Shown: piece by piece, positions 9,650 through 35,179 of the stretch
How positions within the stretch are numbered: position 1 is the stretch's first letter
Layout: every line of letters begins with the position of its first letter
Assembly: GCA_963776275.1 (NCBI GenBank)
Contig: CAVZMI010000006.1
Location: 32,001-96,000 of the forward strand
Source of the DNA: Ignavibacteriota bacterium
GTDB taxonomy: Bacteria > Bacteroidota > Ignavibacteria > UBA10030 > CAVZMI01
Direction of reading: 5' to 3'
DNA: 64,000 bases
Made by a program: the position numbers and the translations under genes
Notes under the pieces: model-generated
Told to the model about the DNA's origin: nothing
Databases searched by the model: none
Seen by the model: the letters and a program-made list of their open reading frames with translations, nothing else

Positions 9650-10180
9650 TTACCGGCCGCGTTTCAATTTGCACCGCAGACAGAGCTGAGCATGCGGAAC
9701 CGCTTCAAGCCGCTCTTTTTCGATAAGCTTACCACAGTCGTTACATCGTCCGTATTCGCCCCGTTCGATCCTTTGCAGGGCATCATCGAGGTAATTGAGA
9801 AATTTGCTTTCCCGTGATGCAAAGAGAAATGTTTTTTCACGCTCCATTGCATCGGTACCCTGTTCCATATGAAGGGAGTAGGTCGAGTTTTCGCTGATGT
9901 ATTCTCCCGTTGTAGTATCCATCATGCTTTCCTTCAGGGTATCGAGCTCCTCGAGAATCTCTTTACGTTTATCCATGATGATCTTTTTAAAATATTCGAG
10001 ATCCGCCTTACCATATCCTGCAAATTTTACTTTTTTCGTCGGTTCAGGCTTTGCTACAACTTTGGGTAGAACCGGCGTTCGTTTCTTAGCTGCTTGAACT
10101 TTCTTCTTGGACGTGGCAACCCCCCTTTTTTCAGGTTTTCGACTTGCGGTTCCTGATTTTGTTCCTTTTTTTGCTGGCAT
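9650..10180 (-). CDS. TraR/DksA C4 zinc-finger protein with Lys-rich N-terminus
   Basis: ALQRIERGEYGRCNDCG...ERLEAVPHAQLCLRC. Confidence 0.9.
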   Translation of the reverse strand: MPAKKGTKSGTASRKPEKRGVATSKKKVQAAKKRTPVLPKVVAKPEPTKKVKFAGYGKADLEYFKKIIMDKRKEILEELDTLKESMMDTTTGEYISENSTYSLHMEQGTDAMEREKTFLFASRESKFLNYLDDALQRIERGEYGRCNDCGKLIEKERLEAVPHAQLCLRCKLKRGR

Positions 10181-10222: not shown

Positions 10223-13200
10223 TTACACGCGTTGAATCCCAATTTCACATTCTTCGCCGTTGACATCCCACGATGCGGAATATTCACCCGGTGCATACGC
10301 GGTGGAAAGTATTTCAGCCAGTGTTTCTGATTTTATATACGCCCCCATCTCTTCTATTGCCACCTGAAGAGACGACGTGGTGTGATAGTAAATGATGATA
10401 CGTTCGGTGACATCAAATCCTGCATCTTTTCGCATCGTCTGGATTTTATTTACAAATTCGCGGGCGTTTCCTTCGCGTATTAACTCTTCATTCAGTTCTG
10501 TATCAAGCGCCACTGTCACTTCATTATCGGATTCCACGACCCATCCTTTAATCTCTTCATGCAGAATATCGAAATCTTCCCGGTCAATTACAACTCTCTG
10601 GCCGTTAACATCGAATTCTTCCTGTCCTTTCCGTTCAATGTTGTTGATTTCCCTGGCTGTAAATTCTTTCACCCGTGCTGCAATTTGTTGAACATGCTTC
10701 CCGTGCTTCGGTCCAAGAACCTTGAAATTCGGTTTTGCACGTTTTTTAATTACACCGCCTTCATCGGTAACATATTCGATGGTTTTTACATTAATTTCTT
10801 CAAGAATAACATCCTCCATGCTTTGAATCCTCGACCGATCCTGGTCACCGGCTACCGGCACGATAATTCTGCGCAGCGGCTGACGCACCTTGAGGTTCGA
10901 TTTGCTGCGAATCGAACGTACAAGATATACAATTCTCTGAGCACGATCCATTCTGTGTTCCAACTCGCTATCAATCGCCGCTGCATTACACTCGGGAAGT
11001 AACGATAGGTGAACCGAATCGTACGGTTCTTTCCCTGTTACCGAATTGAGATTTCGATAAATTTCTTCGGCCAGAAAGGGTGCAAACGGAGCCATGAGCT
11101 TGGTCACGGTTGTCAGACATTCGTAGAGCGTCTGATATGCCGCGTTTTTATCTTTGCCCTGCTCGCTTTTCCAAAACCGTCGCCGGTTACGTCGGACATA
11201 CCAGTTCGAAAGCTGATCTATAGTGAAATCGGACACAAGCCGTGCTGCACGCGTCGGGTCATAACTGTCCATATACTCGGTATATTTCTGCACCATTGTA
11301 TTCATAACCGAGAGTATCCACCGATCGATCTCGGCACGTTCGGCCGGCGTGATTCGTTCTTCCTTAAATTGCCATAAGTCGACGTTTGCATAGAGAGCAA
11401 AGAACGAATAAGTATTGATAAGTGTACCAAAAAACTTACGCTGGACTTCGGTAAGCAACTCGACATCGAAAAGTTTCGGCCTCCATGGAACACTGTTTGT
11501 CACGAGGAACCAACGGACCGTGTCCGCACCGTATGTCGCAATTGTCTCCAACGGATCGACAGCGTTTCCCCGAGACTTCGACATCTTCTGCCCATCCTTA
11601 TCAAGAATCAATTCGTTCACCATCACATTGCTGTAGGCCGGCTTCCCGAAAATGAATGTTCCGATCGCATGCAGAGTATAGAACCAACCGCGTGTCTGAT
11701 CGATTCCTTCGCATATAAAATCGGCCGGATAATTTTCTTCAAAATAATCGCTGTTCTCGAAAGGGTAATGGTACTGTGCAAATGGCATCGCCCCGGAATC
11801 GAACCAGCAATCGATCACTTCCGGAACACGCCGGTACACCGTTCCATTCTTCATGAAAATGATGCGATCCACAAAAGGCTTGTGTAAATCAAGACCTTTA
11901 CCCCCGACGGGCGATCGATTCCCTTTTTCGTCTTCCACCATTCCCTTAAACAACTCATCTACCGAACCGACACAGAACATGTCGCTTCCATCCTCGGCGA
12001 TCCAGATCGGAAGAGGAGTACCCCAATACCGGTCACGTGACAGTGCCCAATCTTTGTTCTCATCCAGCCAGTTGCCAAAACGTCCGGTGCCAACTTCGGG
12101 TGGTATCCAGTTAATCTCATTATTCAACGACTTCATCCGTTCGGCGTATTTTGTCGTTGTGATGTACCACGATGTTCTTGCGTAGTAGAGCAAGGGCGAT
12201 TTACATCGCCAACAATGCGGATAACTGTGGACGATGGTCTCTTTCTTATATAAAAGATGCCGGGACTTCAAATTCTGGATAATCATCGGATCGGCGTCCT
12301 TAACAAACTGACCGGCAAAATCTGTGATCTCCTGCGTAAATGCACCGCTCTTATCCACGGGATTGACTGTAGGAAGATCGTACTCACGTCCTACCTGATA
12401 ATCGTCTTCACCGAAAGCAGGTGCAATATGGACAATCCCCGAACCGTCTGTCGTCGTCACAAAATCAGCTTCAATGACATAGAAGCCCTTACGATCAACC
12501 GGAACATAATCGAACAACCGCTCATACTCTTTTCCGGCAAGTGCCGATCCCTTATAACGGTCGATGATTTTAAATTCACCGTCAAGCGCCGAAAGCCGCT
12601 CTTCGGCCAGAATCAGTTCCTCTCCTTTATGAGAGATTTTTACATAATCGATATTGGGATGGACGGCAAGAGCGACGTTTGAAATGAGAGTCCATGGTGT
12701 TGTCGTCCATACAAGGATCGAGGCATCCTCATTCTTCAATTTCATTTTAACATAGACCGAAGGATCCTTGACATCTTCGTATCCCTGTGATACTTCATGA
12801 GAAGACAGCGGGGTTTCGCATCGTGGACAGTACGGCTGGATTTTAAAGCCCTTCGTAATCATTCCTTCGTCAAAAAATCGTTTGATCGCCCACCAGACCG
12901 ACTCGATATACTCATTTTTATATGTGACATAGGCGTCTTTAAGATCAACCCAGTAACCCATCCGCTCGGTCATTATTTCCCAATCCCTGGTATACTCGAA
13001 GACCGATGCCCGGCAATCATCGTTAAATTTTTCTACGCCGTATGCTTCGATTTGTTCTTTGTGTTTGAACCCGTGTTCTTTTTCAACTTCAATCTCTACA
13101 GGAAGTCCATGCGTATCCCATCCAGCTTTGCGATGGACCTGATACCCGCGCATTGTCTTGTAACGACACACAAGGTCTTTGAGCGTTCGGGCCATTACGT

Positions 13201-26929: not shown

Positions 26930-27141
26930 CCAACGGTTGGACAATATATTATTGAGAAGAAGAATCCACAACTCTTCTTCTTTTCAGATTACTTCGATAG
27001 ACTTCACTTCTCTCGTTGGCTGTTGTGGAAAACACAAAGTGCACAAAGTACCGTTGATAAAGCAATTAATGAGGACACAAAGAAGAATTTCAGTCTTCTT
27101 CTTCATTGAGTATAATTCAGATATCCGACTCTATCATCATA

Positions 27142-29234: not shown

Positions 29235-29801
29235 ATGAACAGGGGCATTCTTTTCCTTATCATCTCGATCATCTGGGTAGCATCCGAAATCATTCTGGCA
29301 CGGCTGAAAAGGTCCGGCTCGTCCGATCCGGCACAGGATAAACATTCCTTGAGAATTCTCTGGATAACGATAGCTGTTTGTGTCAATATCGGGATCTTTT
29401 TGGGATTTTGGGGTAAAGGTTTTATCCGGGAGGGGAGTTTCACTATTTCGGTCACAGGGCTAGCTTTCATCATCATCGGATTGATCGTTCGATGGATTTC
29501 GATAATCTCGCTACGGAGGTTTTTTACCGTCGATATCAATATTGCACATGATCATCGACTGGTGACGAAAGGTATTTACCGGATCATCCGCCATCCGGCA
29601 TATTCCGGCAGTTTACTTTCTTTTCTAGGGTTAGGAATGGTCTTCTCGAGCTGGATTTCGGTTGCGGTGATTTTTATCCCTATTCTTCTAGCATTCCTTT
29701 ACAGGATCCGGGTTGAAGAGAAAGCACTCATCGCCCATTTTGGTGATGAGTACGTTCGGTATTCCATCTCAACCAAACGGTTGATCCCGAGAATCTATTG
29801 A
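29235..29801 (+). CDS. Isoprenylcysteine carboxyl methyltransferase (ICMT/Ste14) family membrane protein
   Basis: HRLVTKGIYRIIRHPAYSG, RIRVEEKAL..FGDEY..Y. Confidence 0.88.
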   Translation: MNRGILFLIISIIWVASEIILARLKRSGSSDPAQDKHSLRILWITIAVCVNIGIFLGFWGKGFIREGSFTISVTGLAFIIIGLIVRWISIISLRRFFTVDINIAHDHRLVTKGIYRIIRHPAYSGSLLSFLGLGMVFSSWISVAVIFIPILLAFLYRIRVEEKALIAHFGDEYVRYSISTKRLIPRIY

Positions 29802-29812
29802 CAGATCTTTCT

Positions 29813-29965
29813 ATGGCTATTAAATATAATTCTATTGTTCCGTGGGGGCGGTCATTTGAAGAATACCGGCTGATGTTTCATCTGACTGCTGATGACCTCG
29901 ACCTCACGATCCTCGGTTGTGCCGATGGTCTTGCCAGTTTCAATGCCGAAATGTATAAAAGGAGA
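29813..29965 (+). pseudogene. N-terminal fragment of a SAM-dependent methyltransferase
   Basis: IVPWGRSFEEYRLMF.L...ILGCADGLASFNAE; similarity ends abruptly at the RBS of the next gene. Confidence 0.6.
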
Positions 29966-29975
29966 TTCGAACATA

Positions 29976-30312
29976 ATGGGAAAAAATCTAAAATTAGATA
30001 TACCACTGAACCTCGAAAACTTCACGACCGACGACTACCATGAGCTCTGGAATCATCTCGGTCCGATTGAAATCCGTATGATCGAAAAATGCGGAAAATG
30101 TAAACACGCTTTAGATGATGTATTTGTCTATCAGCATCCGTACGATAAACCGGCCGGAGTGTGTAACGCATTGCTCCACGTGCTCGATCTGTATACATGG
30201 AGAGTTGCGCTCGGATTTCCGTCATGGGAATCCGATAACAGAAAGCTGCCATCGCATCCACTGCCCGGCTAAAAAAGGAACAATCTGGGAAATGAAGAAA
30301 TTGGAGAGATAG
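29976..30312 (+). CDS. Small Cys-containing protein (TIGR04076-like), apparent frameshift near 30247
   Basis: AAGGAG RBS; GKCKH..D.F, P.GVCNALL; C-terminal HRIHCPAKKGTIWEMKK lies in the adjacent frame. Confidence 0.55.
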
Positions 30313-30337
30313 AGATTACGATGCCAATATGAAATTT

Positions 30338-30462
30338 AAACTCTGTGTCCTCTGTGCTCGATAGAATTATAGATATCCTCTGTGGACTCCGTGGTTATAT
30401 TTTATCATTGATAAAAAGAAAAACACGGAGATCACAAAGGATCCACGGAGGACACAGAGTAT
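30338..30462. repeat. CTCTGTG/CACAGAG short-unit repeat cluster
   Basis: CTCTGTGTCCTCTGTG...CTCTGTGGACTCCGTGGTTATATTTTATC...CACGGAGGACACAGAG; related copies near 27030-27085, 32565-32600 and 34965-35135. Confidence 0.65.
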
Positions 30463-30544
30463 ATATTCCTTATGTTTTTTCAAAGAAAACGATTAGTAAT
30501 GGAACAGATTCTATATTATTATTGTTTTTAATAATAATAAGGAT

Positions 30545-30573
30545 TTGCAAAATTGAATTCTTTATTGTATATT
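30545..30573 (+). promoter_or_regulatory. Sigma70-type promoter of the cys leader and cysE-cysK
   Basis: TTGCAA-17 nt-TATATT; predicted +1 near 30579-30580, at the leader ATG. Confidence 0.65.
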
Positions 30574-30578
30574 TTATT

Positions 30579-30674
30579 ATGGTAATTTACAATCATAGTA
30601 TCTCTGCTCTTTCAATCGGATCTTTTCCGATATCCAATTCGTGTATCTTCTGCACCTGTAGCTGCTGTTGTTGA
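30579..30674 (+). CDS. Putative Cys-rich leader (attenuator) peptide, 31 aa
   Basis: MVIYNHSISALSIGSFPISNSCIFCTCSCCC*; 6 Cys in the last 10 codons; lies directly upstream of cysE-cysK. Confidence 0.75.
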   Translation: MVIYNHSISALSIGSFPISNSCIFCTCSCCC

Positions 30675-30704
30675 TCATGTAATCAACACAGCCCTTTTCT
30701 TTTT
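30664..30704 (+). terminator. Attenuator terminator overlapping the leader's last Cys codons and stop
   Basis: GCTG(T)TGTTGAT / ATCAACACAGC 11-bp stem, CATGTA loop, then CCTTTTCTTTTT. Confidence 0.65.
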
Positions 30705-30764
30705 ACACTCTAATAGATTTTCACTATAGTTTATTCATATAAATTATTCTTAGGAATCAACGTC

Positions 30765-31574
30765 ATGGTCAACCATCATTTTCTCGAGACACTCGATGCC
30801 AATAATGGCAAGTTTTCAATTTACCTTCCTTCCAAACCGAAGGCCCAGCAATTCGTCGATCAACTGATTCATTTTCTTTTCCCGATTACTGCCGGAGTGA
30901 GTTTATCTATCCAGCAGCTTGAATTACGACTGATGCATCTCCGACTGGAATATGAAGAATTACTCGAACCCCTCGCCTGCTATTTCAAACATCCGCTGAC
31001 AGAGCTCACGGATAGTTATTTCAACAATCTGCCCGTCGCTTATGAACTCCTGTTGAAAGATGCGAAGGCAATCGAAGAATTCGATCCGGCTGCCTACTCA
31101 ATCGAAGAGATCATCATTTCATATCCCGGATTCTATGCCATCGCCGTACACAGATTGGCGCATCATATGTACACGCTGGAGATCCCCATTCTCCCACGCG
31201 TGATCTCGGAATATGCCCACAGCCTAACGGGTATCGACATCCATCCGGGAGCAAGAATTGGCGAGTCGTTTTTTATCGATCACGGAACAGGCATCGTCAT
31301 CGGTGAAACGACAGATATTGGGGCCAATGTGAAGATGTACCAGGGTGTGACGCTGGGGGCACTCAGCGTGAAGAAATTGCTTGCTAATAAGAAACGTCAT
31401 CCCACAATCGAGGATAATGTTATTATTTATTCTGGAAGCACAATCCTCGGAGGCGACACGGTCATCGGGCATGATTCGATCATCGGCGGGAACGTATGGC
31501 TCACGGAAAGCGTTGAACCATATACAGTTGTTTACAACAAGCATGAAGTCAGCGTACGAAATACAAAAGGTTGA
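30765..31574 (+). CDS. cysE: Serine O-acetyltransferase (EpsC-type)
   Basis: [53 protein letters not shown]. Confidence 0.95.
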
Positions 31575-31618: not shown

Positions 31619-32533
31619 ATGAAAGCGAACAATATACTGGAAATCATAGGCCGGACACCTCACGTGAAGATCAACAGGCTTTTCCCTGCCGGTGTCGAAG
31701 TATGGATGAAACTTGAGCGGGCCAATCCCGGGGGAAGCATCAAAGACCGCATAGGTTTGTCGCTAATCGAGGATGCAGAGAAGAAGGGCTATCTGAATAA
31801 AGACAGCGTGATCATCGAGCCGACTTCCGGAAATACCGGTATCGGTCTGGCCATGGTCGCAGCCGTCAAGGGCTATAAAATAATTCTCGTGATGCCCGAG
31901 TCGATGTCGGTTGAACGTCGCAAGTTGATGTCTCTTTATGGAGCTAAATTTGAGCTCACTCCGCGCGAAAAAGGAATGAAAGGAGCCATCGAGCGGGCAT
32001 ATGAGCTGGTAAAGACAACACCCAATGCATGGATGCCGCAGCAATTTGAAAATGAGGCGAATACCGAAATCCACCGCCGGACCACCGCACAGGAAATTTT
32101 ACAGGATTTCCCCGACGGACTCGATTACCTGATCACCGGCGTGGGAACGGGCGGACACATCACCGGCTGCGCTGAGGTACTCAAAAAGAAGTTCCCTGAA
32201 TTGAAAGTCTTCGCCGTCGAACCCGATCTATCACCGGTCATTGGCGGCGGGAAACCGGGACCGCATGCATTACAGGGACTCGGAGCCGGGTTCATTCCGA
32301 AAATCCTCAACACCGGAATACTGGATGGCACCATACAGGTCAGTAAAGAAGAAGCCTTCGAATACGCAAGACGATCGGCAAAGGAGGAAGGTATATTTGT
32401 AGGAATTTCATCCGGCGCGGCCCTTGCAGCAGTTGCAAAAAAGCTCACTGAGATACCGAAGGGAAGCCGCGTGCTGACATTCTGTTACGATACCGGCGAA
32501 CGGTATCTGTCGATCGAGGGATTATTTGAATAA
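31619..32533 (+). CDS. cysK: Cysteine synthase A
   Basis: [42 protein letters not shown]. Confidence 0.96.
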
Positions 32534-32681
32534 TTCTCATTGATAAAAAATAAATAGCTACTGCCACTCTGTGTCCTTTGTGGTTATATTTTATCAATTG
32601 TGAATTTAGAATATTTACCTCCGTAACTATTCGCATCGTCCCTTCGTCGCTATTATGATTCCACATTCACAGGGGGGAAAA

Positions 32682-34934: not shown

Positions 34935-35179
34935 TACCAATTAGAGAAATTGAGAAGTTTTTTATACTCCGTGTTCTCTGTGGCAGTGCCCCTAATATTT
35001 ACTCTGATTTTGAAGACGGGGGCACAGCACCACCACTGTTCTTTCTTAATAGCCTGGTGTTATATTTTATAAAACATAACCACAGAGTACACAAAGTTAT
35101 CAAATAACTAATAAATGAGGACACAGAGTTTAAAATTCTATATTTTATCAACCATTGAAGCTGTAATCATGAGGCCCCT

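Follow-up and report, generated by a model that had tools for sequence, protein, structure and literature searches.

A putative cysteine-sensing attenuator with cysteine codons embedded in a terminator-like hairpin upstream of cysE-cysK in an Ignavibacteriota bacterium

Transcription attenuators that rely on a leader peptide are classically known from the trp, his, leu, thr, ilv and pheA operons of enterobacteria. A candidate element of this general kind, which is proposed to sense cysteine, lies upstream of the cysE-cysK genes of an Ignavibacteriota bacterium (GenBank assembly GCA_963776275.1; 3.70 Mb in 38 contigs, here called G000). It was studied within a stretch of 64,000 nucleotides (nt) of contig CAVZMI010000006.1 (contig C6 of our numbering; positions 32,001 to 96,000 of the forward strand), which is referred to as the window and whose positions are used throughout unless another contig or a locus is named. 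With the enterobacterial attenuators the element shares a short open reading frame (ORF) rich in codons for the end product and a predicted intrinsic terminator before the first structural gene, and in the model proposed here it would likewise be the position of the ribosome on the regulatory codons that decides on read-through. It differs in that cysteine would be the amino acid sensed, in that no conserved antiterminator is present, in that the regulatory codons and the stop codon form the 5' arm of the predicted terminator, and in that the transcript is probably leaderless, with no Shine-Dalgarno sequence. A second relation is to pyrBI of Escherichia coli, where the ribosome translating the leader runs into the terminator region and directly blocks the hairpin with no antiterminator involved. 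The mechanism proposed for G000 shares this direct prevention of the terminator hairpin by a ribosome, whereas pyrBI senses uridine triphosphate (UTP) through polymerase pausing and not an amino acid through tRNA charging. The control of cysteine synthesis is textbook knowledge for proteobacteria (CysB) and Firmicutes (CymR, T-box and S-box). Literature searches on such control in Bacteroidota yielded nothing, and they returned no cysteine leader described for Bacteroidota or Ignavibacteria, which agrees with the remark in a preliminary description of this DNA that no account of such a system was known for the lineage.

The closest described cysteine leaders are those of mycobacteria, Rhodobacterales and Actinobacteria. 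The mycobacterial polycysteine leaderless short ORFs (sORFs) termed the 'Cys ribulon' were reported to act on translation (Canestrari et al. 2020, bioRxiv 10.1101/834739), and in that report attenuation mediated by a cysteine upstream ORF (uORF) is said not to have been described previously. Shared with the G000 element are a poly-Cys sORF at the 5' end of the mRNA (a predicted position in G000), an association with genes of the cysteine pathway, and stalling at Cys codons as the event that relieves, or in G000 would relieve, a repressive RNA structure. Two or more adjacent Cys codons ahead of genes of the cysteine pathway, as in the mycobacterial sORFs, are present in G000 as well. In G000, however, the partner strand of the Cys codons is part of a hairpin that a U tract follows, 60 nt ahead of cysE, which points to control of transcription; the two also belong to different phyla and have no sequence relationship. 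The uORFC-8-2 motif upstream of cysS in Rhodobacterales (Brewer et al. 2021, PMC8632094), a predicted Cys-Cys uORF with a terminator, has in common with G000 tandem Cys codons within a stem, a terminator with a U run and a proposed ribosome-mediated attenuation. It differs in controlling a cysteinyl-tRNA synthetase, in belonging to the Alphaproteobacteria, in being presented as a prediction only, and in carrying a pair of Cys codons (positions 14-15) that is located in the first of two stems (PMC8632094). Actinobacterial Cys leaders before cys and cbs genes were predicted, without terminators, by Seliverstov et al. 2005 (PMC1262725), together with ilvB leaders whose regulatory codons overlap terminator hairpins; a codon substitution in S. 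coelicolor is reported there to have been without effect. These leaders resemble the G000 element in the Cys runs near the leader stop and, in the case of ilvB, in the same compact overlap of regulatory codons and terminator, and they differ in that the Cys leaders have no terminator hairpin and in that ilvB concerns branched-chain amino acids (PMC1262725). Leader-peptide attenuation before Flavobacterium amino-acid operons is mentioned by Guegan et al. 2021 (PMC9723704), with cysteine not named in the passages concerned, and a term search of Naville and Gautheret 2010 (PMC2965389) found no mention of cysE, cysK or Bacteroidetes.

The G000 element is read here as a probable cysteine-sensing, ribosome-mediated transcription attenuator of cysE-cysK, in a compact form without a conserved antiterminator (probability roughly 0.65). 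Judged from the comparison of related sequences, the element itself is real, conserved and cis-regulatory; from it we infer a transcription start, termination at a hairpin, occlusion of that hairpin by the ribosome and a response to cysteine. The leader ORF (30579..30674, + strand) consists of 31 codons and TGA and has the translation MVIYNHSISALSIGSFPISNSCIFCTCSCCC. Six of its last ten codons specify cysteine (codons 22, 25, 27, 29, 30 and 31), giving the terminal pattern C-x-x-C-x-C-x-C-C-C-stop, in which CCC corresponds to codons 29-31. A density of six Cys in ten codons was found in just 10 stop-to-stop segments across the six frames of the 3.70 Mb genome, the leader being among them. The end of the ORF overlaps an intrinsic-terminator-like element (30664..30704, + strand) composed of the hairpin GCTGTTGTTGATCATGTAATCAACACAGC (30664-30692), then CC, then TTTTCTTTTT (30695-30704). 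The hairpin has 11 pairs and one bulged T, with the 5' arm at 30664-30675, the loop at 30676-30681 and the 3' arm at 30682-30692, and its 5' arm holds most of Cys codon 29, Cys codons 30-31 and the stop codon TGA (30672-30674). Its energy is -12.4 kcal/mol (z -3.7), a stability equalled by none of 200 shuffled sequences, and the fold of the complete 186-nt leader has a z of -3.3. Intrinsic terminators are in use in G000, where 35 terminator-like sites were counted against 19.5 +/- 3.7 in shuffles.

A spacer of 60 nt (30705..30764, + strand), in which an AGGA resembling a Shine-Dalgarno motif is placed about 9 nt ahead of the ATG, leads to cysE (30765..31574, + strand), which encodes an EpsC-type serine O-acetyltransferase of 269 amino acids (NF041874, 156 bits, cut-off 150). 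The gene for cysteine synthase A, cysK (31619..32533, + strand; 304 amino acids; TIGR01139, 411 bits, cut-off 351), starts 44 nt past the end of cysE, and no + strand terminator-like site was found in the gap between the two. Two small hairpins were identified within the leader ORF. Small hairpin 1 (30615..30631, + strand), formed by ATCGGA, the loop TCTTT and TCCGAT within codons 13-18, has an energy of -7.6 kcal/mol (z -2.8), with none of 200 shuffles as stable, and is possibly a pause hairpin for RNA polymerase. Small hairpin 2 (30641..30655, + strand), formed by GTGTA, the loop TCTTC and TGCAC, contains Cys codons 22 and 25 and may also have a functional role. The promoter strings, leader ORF, Cys and Ser counts, overlapping hairpin, 60-nt gap and mid-leader hairpin given in the preliminary description were all recovered base for base, and its central claim, that a leader ORF with Cys codons controls cysE-cysK through an overlapping terminator, is strongly backed by the comparative evidence.

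The element was found in all three genomes of the family to which G000 belongs (family f1). In G001, a member of the same genus whose CysE is 99% identical, the leader is MIIFDHTTLISSIGFSPISNSCILCTCSCCC and the terminator is the same. In G002, from another genus and with a CysE 75% identical, the leader is MNNRRTIYYPAHLTCICTCCCC; its last four Cys codons and the first two bases of its stop codon belong to the 5' arm of a hairpin that differs from that of G000 but is equivalent to it (-16.8 kcal/mol, z -3.7). The design common to both genera consists of a poly-Cys end and stop codon placed within a hairpin, the remaining peptide having diverged and the Cys-codon core being the sole conserved block. 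Alignment of G000 with G001 gave 29-44 identical positions per 60-base window in the intergenic region 30325-30584 and 117 of 120 identical positions at 30645-30764, the same level as coding sequence. This latter figure is made up of 58 of 60 at 30645-30704, which includes the terminator, and 59 of 60 in the spacer. At 30612-30674 every difference falls within a hairpin loop; both small-hairpin stems are invariant and their loops vary, the one difference in the region of small hairpin 2 being in its loop. The restriction of differences to loops, together with the identity of 117 of 120, indicates that the constrained part is the RNA from small hairpin 1 to cysE and not the N-terminal half of the peptide. 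Both small hairpins are absent in G002.

A survey of cysE upstream regions was carried out across the class. CysE orthologues (E up to 1e-40) were present in 76 of 277 genomes of the order and in 90 of a 401-genome class sample. Within the order, all 77 places were analysed, together with one metagenome-assembled genome (MAG). Outside it the analysis covered 64 of 72 places, the others being seven in family f13 and one in f16. L098 and L128, with less than 300 nt upstream, were dropped, and a separate CysE search of genome contigs gave 2 loci only. Cys-rich uORFs upstream of cysE were looked for in these related genomes and are present: in the 300 nt preceding cysE, 49 of 140 loci have three or more Cys codons in a row on the sense strand, the corresponding counts being 0 for the antisense strand and 2 for a piece of equal length taken from within cysE. 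These 49 loci are spread over 22 of 59 genera. As the surveyed genomes are related, the counts are not independent events, and the figure of 49 is conservative because several leaders with only two adjacent Cys codons went uncounted. Runs were found in families f1 (3/3), f9 (18/32), f17 (6/20), f22 (16/24), f28 (3/6), f30 (1/1) and f7 (1/5) and in the MAG (1/1), and none was found in f8 (0/29), f2 (0/6), f13 (0/4), f5, f10 and f33 (0/2 each) or f23, f32 and f36 (0/1 each). The occurrence of a Cys leader before cysE is not due to chance.

The reading frame of these repeats was also compared. An ORF started by ATG and ending before cysE exists in the Cys frame at 46 of the 49 loci and in each other frame at 4 of 49, and a reading of the TGT/TGC repeat as Leu or Val was rejected on this count; at the G000 locus the Leu frame is moreover closed by TAG and TAA. 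The leaders, which are 22-42 codons long, have a Cys content of 16.7%; shuffling of the nucleotides lowers it to 3.5%, and CysE itself has 0.4%. Sensing of serine was rejected as well. The 7 Ser to which the preliminary description drew attention are present in the G000 leader but are not a general feature, the G002 leader having 0 Ser and the 46 leaders together 9.6%, against 10.1% in shuffles.

These results bear on an explanation without any regulatory role, in which the ORF would encode a small Cys-rich peptide (metal-binding or a modified-peptide precursor) or be a chance TGT-rich frame, with the hairpin serving as a plain terminator or stabilising the upstream transcript. The leader frame is in fact open upstream to GTG 30345, TGT/TGC repeats also give runs of Val or Leu when another frame is read, and chance poly-Cys frames are common in metagenomes. 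Against these points stand the retention of only the ATG in relatives, the conservation of only the Cys run and its position before cysE and not of the peptide sequence, and the frame and strand counts given above. In addition, the nearest upstream + strand gene ends approximately 300-400 nt earlier, with a repeat hairpin in between. An element of no regulatory consequence is consequently considered very unlikely.

Upstream of the leader ORF, a candidate sigma70-type promoter (30545..30573, + strand) consists of TTGCAA (30545-30550), a 17-nt spacer and TATATT (30568-30573). With 9 of 12 matches it is in itself no better than chance (39 such matches per 20 kb against 31.9 +/- 5.4 in shuffles). 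ATG 30579 starts 5 nt past the end of the TATATT -10 box, and no GGAG/AGGA-type Shine-Dalgarno motif was found in the 16 nt preceding it. The corresponding sequences are TTGGAA-17-TATATT-5 nt-ATG in G001 and TTGACA-16-TAGATT-8 nt-ATG in G002, so that the distance from the end of the -10-like box to the leader ATG is 5 nt in G000 and G001 and 8 nt in G002. Class-wide, a promoter ending 5-9 nt before the ATG was found for 16 of 46 leaders and for 1 of 140 cysE ATGs. The 16 promoter-bearing leaders form 6 groups (five genera and the one MAG), with -35 boxes as good as TTGACA. In a second control, 31 of 756 ATG triplets of the same regions, leader ATGs included, had such a promoter. A Shine-Dalgarno-like motif precedes 1 of 46 leaders as opposed to 59 of 140 cysE starts. 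Translation of the leader from a 5'-terminal or nearly terminal AUG has thus good circumstantial support, and a transcription +1 at the leader ATG is predicted from promoter geometry alone, a geometry that recurs.

Two arrangements of the Cys run can be distinguished among the leaders of the class. The run ends at least 4 codons before the stop codon in 27 leaders and 0-1 codon before it in 19, and the G000 element belongs to this latter, compact kind. The former kind is exemplified by genus g32 of family f9, in which leaders of 32-42 codons have a mid-peptide Cys run and are followed, from about 30 nt past the stop codon, by a strong terminator (-11 to -18 kcal/mol) and its U tract. An alignment of the 11 g32 loci, out of 16, whose Cys run has a length of three or more revealed two terminator stem pairs with compensatory changes and a helix linking the Cys codons to a downstream GAGC strand, which by eye is complementary to the terminator 5' arm too. 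As judged from this alignment, g32-type leaders have the textbook layout of an attenuator, which links the Cys leaders with the termination of transcription. As to the 19 compact leaders, the Cys and stop codons are covered by a hairpin more stable than any of 30 shuffles at the three f1 loci and at two f28 loci, and such a hairpin is marginal at two f22 loci; the two f28 hairpins have no U tract. The full design, in which Cys codons and stop codon serve as an arm of the predicted terminator and a U-rich tail follows, is on these comparisons established for f1, suggested for f28 and not general.

The mechanism proposed for G000 is as follows. Transcription would start at or within a few bases of ATG 30579, which would entail translation of the leader without a Shine-Dalgarno sequence, and the last Cys codons and the stop codon would themselves be the 5' arm of the intrinsic terminator. 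With Cys-tRNA in good supply, the ribosome would pass the six Cys codons and be released at UGA; the hairpin would then form with RNA polymerase at the U tract, which would end the transcript ahead of cysE. Under a shortage of Cys-tRNA, a ribosome stalled at codons 27-31 would cover the 5' arm and block the hairpin, so that polymerase would continue into cysE-cysK. An antiterminator would play no part. The two small hairpins could, more speculatively, pause polymerase so that the ribosome catches up.

A number of points weigh against this mechanism or confine it, and the first concerns the ribosome itself. The reach of a ribosome is usually about 12-13 nt beyond the P site, and stalls at Cys22 or Cys25 would accordingly leave the terminator free, with only codons 27-31 covering the stem. 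A ribosome waiting at UGA would also cover the stem, which makes the switch dependent on the speed of release relative to the progress of polymerase. The simple proposal of the preliminary description, that a stalled ribosome blocks the terminator, has these two gaps, which were not raised there.

The second point concerns RNA structure. In G000, leader bases 12-29 can pair with the Cys region, possibly as an antiterminator that this genome alone has; a fold of nothing but the first 97 nt, without the 3' arm, contains this pairing and has an energy of -19.9 kcal/mol (z -2.9). Such a pairing would suit a classical attenuator with an unrecognised alternative structure, in which the position of the ribosome selects between structures instead of covering the stem, either because an upstream segment sequesters the 5' arm of the terminator or because the two small hairpins join a switch. 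The invariance of both small-hairpin stems between G000 and G001, with variable loops, and the classical arrangement of the f9 relatives would fit the same explanation. However, the alternative pairing, the sole one found, is not conserved, being at best weak in G001 (z -1.4) and in G002 (z 0.4), G002 has no small hairpins, and the terminator wins in the minimum-energy fold of the full leader. A classical attenuator is for these reasons considered unlikely at this locus. The fading of the alternative pairing in G001 and G002 makes direct occlusion of the 5' arm by the ribosome the simplest model, and the statement of the preliminary description that no antiterminator is needed fits this result.

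Further points are related to the distribution of the design and to its surroundings. A sigma70-like match, TTTACA-17-TATAGT (10 of 12), is located at 30702-30730, between the terminator and cysE, and could be a second, unattenuated cysE promoter or an AT-rich chance match. The U tract of G002 is poor (TTTCATCATT), and the genomes known to have the exact compact design are three, from two lineages. When metagenomes were scanned for the conserved Cys core as a pattern, 92 stretches matched, of which 80 were fetched, and these gave 1 further copy (L231, from the species of G001) with cysE downstream and the G001 leader. The other fetched stretches consisted of 28 short poly-Cys frames without a downstream cysE match, which are taken as chance, and 51 that failed the short-frame filter.

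Finally, 12 of the 19 compact leaders, all in other families, have no hairpin better than shuffles, and poly-Cys leaders may as a result act also by another route. For G000 this would mean that the Cys leader regulates cysE-cysK through Rho-dependent termination after ribosome release, through mRNA stability or through translational control of cysE. The mycobacterial poly-Cys leaderless sORFs, which free a sequestered ribosome-binding site (10.1101/834739), offer a precedent for the last of these. The missing U tract of the two f28 hairpins also speaks for a route of this kind, as does the location of the cysE AGGA in a weak helix of the minimum-energy fold. On the other hand, the G000 hairpin has a good U tract and the two are conserved together, and intrinsic terminators are in use in this genome. 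The ribosome-binding site of cysE is moreover 60 nt away and is not paired with the Cys region, which in the minimum-energy fold of the full leader pairs with 30682-30692 and not with the AGGA. Regulation by such a route is considered rather unlikely for the f1 element.

The leaders without a significant hairpin are L145, L114, L118, L112, L121, L126, L132, L133, L131, L135, L139 (f22) and L049. They end in 3-6 Cys codons, with the stop codon 53-66 nt before cysE (110 nt in L049), and may work via Rho or translational coupling.

If cysteine-sensing attenuation of the kind proposed does take place, 22 of the 59 sampled genera with this cysE, and with them a large share of one Bacteroidota class, would regulate cysE by translating a poly-Cys mini-gene. 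The f1 form, consisting of a promoter, an ORF and a hairpin, would be about the simplest attenuator possible and a convenient system in which to study switching by the timing of transcription and translation alone. It would also provide annotators with a handle to spot unannotated regulatory mini-ORFs. A wider proposal, to which we give somewhat less than even odds, is that the element is a minimal two-part sensor, with a leaderless transcript whose sensing codons are half of the terminator and in which ribosome occupancy alone decides. It would stand at one end of a large, hitherto undescribed family of cysteine-leader attenuators in this Bacteroidota class that includes classical four-strand and hairpin-less forms. 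The evolutionary steps between attenuator architectures could in that case be read from living examples.

Other sulfur loci of the f1 genomes were also examined. Three screens of the G000 genome found no second Cys leader. Three copies of a MVIPTATA...CCC frame were rejected as candidates, being antisense over the starts of paralogous genes. On contig C32 of G000 (minus strand, 12754-12816 and 10053-10061) two short frames ending ...ILHFCCC-stop have near-identical flanks, with no cysteine gene seen downstream, and are probably part of a repeat. An S-adenosylmethionine (SAM) riboswitch (RF00162, 60.5 bits, gathering threshold 44.4) was identified on contig C23 of G000 (L160, 2974-3187, minus strand), at most 450 nt upstream of metY, with a hairpin and T run in between (seen by eye, unscored); sequence similarity, also by eye, places a SAM riboswitch upstream of metY in G001 too. 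In G002 (contig C6 of that genome, L157) cysK is located away from cysE, behind metY (O-acetylhomoserine sulfhydrylase-like). This metY-cysK pair is preceded by a 40-codon uORF, MNNFMLERISMCGMGAMAFCCCRMRFFAASAGKSCSSNYF (L157, 672-794), with six Met and a CCC run, possibly a leader for both methionine and cysteine. It is followed, at approximately 868-915 of L157, by a strong hairpin and its U tract (leader fold z -3.95). This leader is not leaderless, having a 31-nt 5' untranslated region after a TTGACA-17-TATACT promoter. The uORF suggests that leader peptides serve at another sulfur locus of family f1 as well, one at which G000 has a riboswitch.

In the surroundings of the cysE leader, no relevant Rfam match, whether to a T-box, a SAM riboswitch or another riboswitch, was found at 29800-31300 with E up to 10. 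The SAM riboswitch upstream of metY, detected in the same genome, served as positive control. Just sub-threshold microRNA-like matches were obtained, which are due to a neighbouring intergenic repeat element. This repeat family, with ACTCTGTGTCCTCTGTG-like ends and a GTTATATTTTATCA core, has copies in the window at 30327-30473, 32566-32603, 34966-35139 and 27064-27082. One copy, with 30-nt inverted arms 87 nt apart, lies directly upstream of the leader promoter, and another comes after the cysK stop codon. The family looks like an element of the repetitive extragenic palindrome (REP) or miniature inverted-repeat transposable element (MITE) type. Further upstream, two overlapping + strand ORFs without a family match (29798-30043 and 29892-30272) were identified where the alignment of G000 and G001 is fragmented by many gaps (29805-29974), and these are possibly a frameshifted or rearranged gene.

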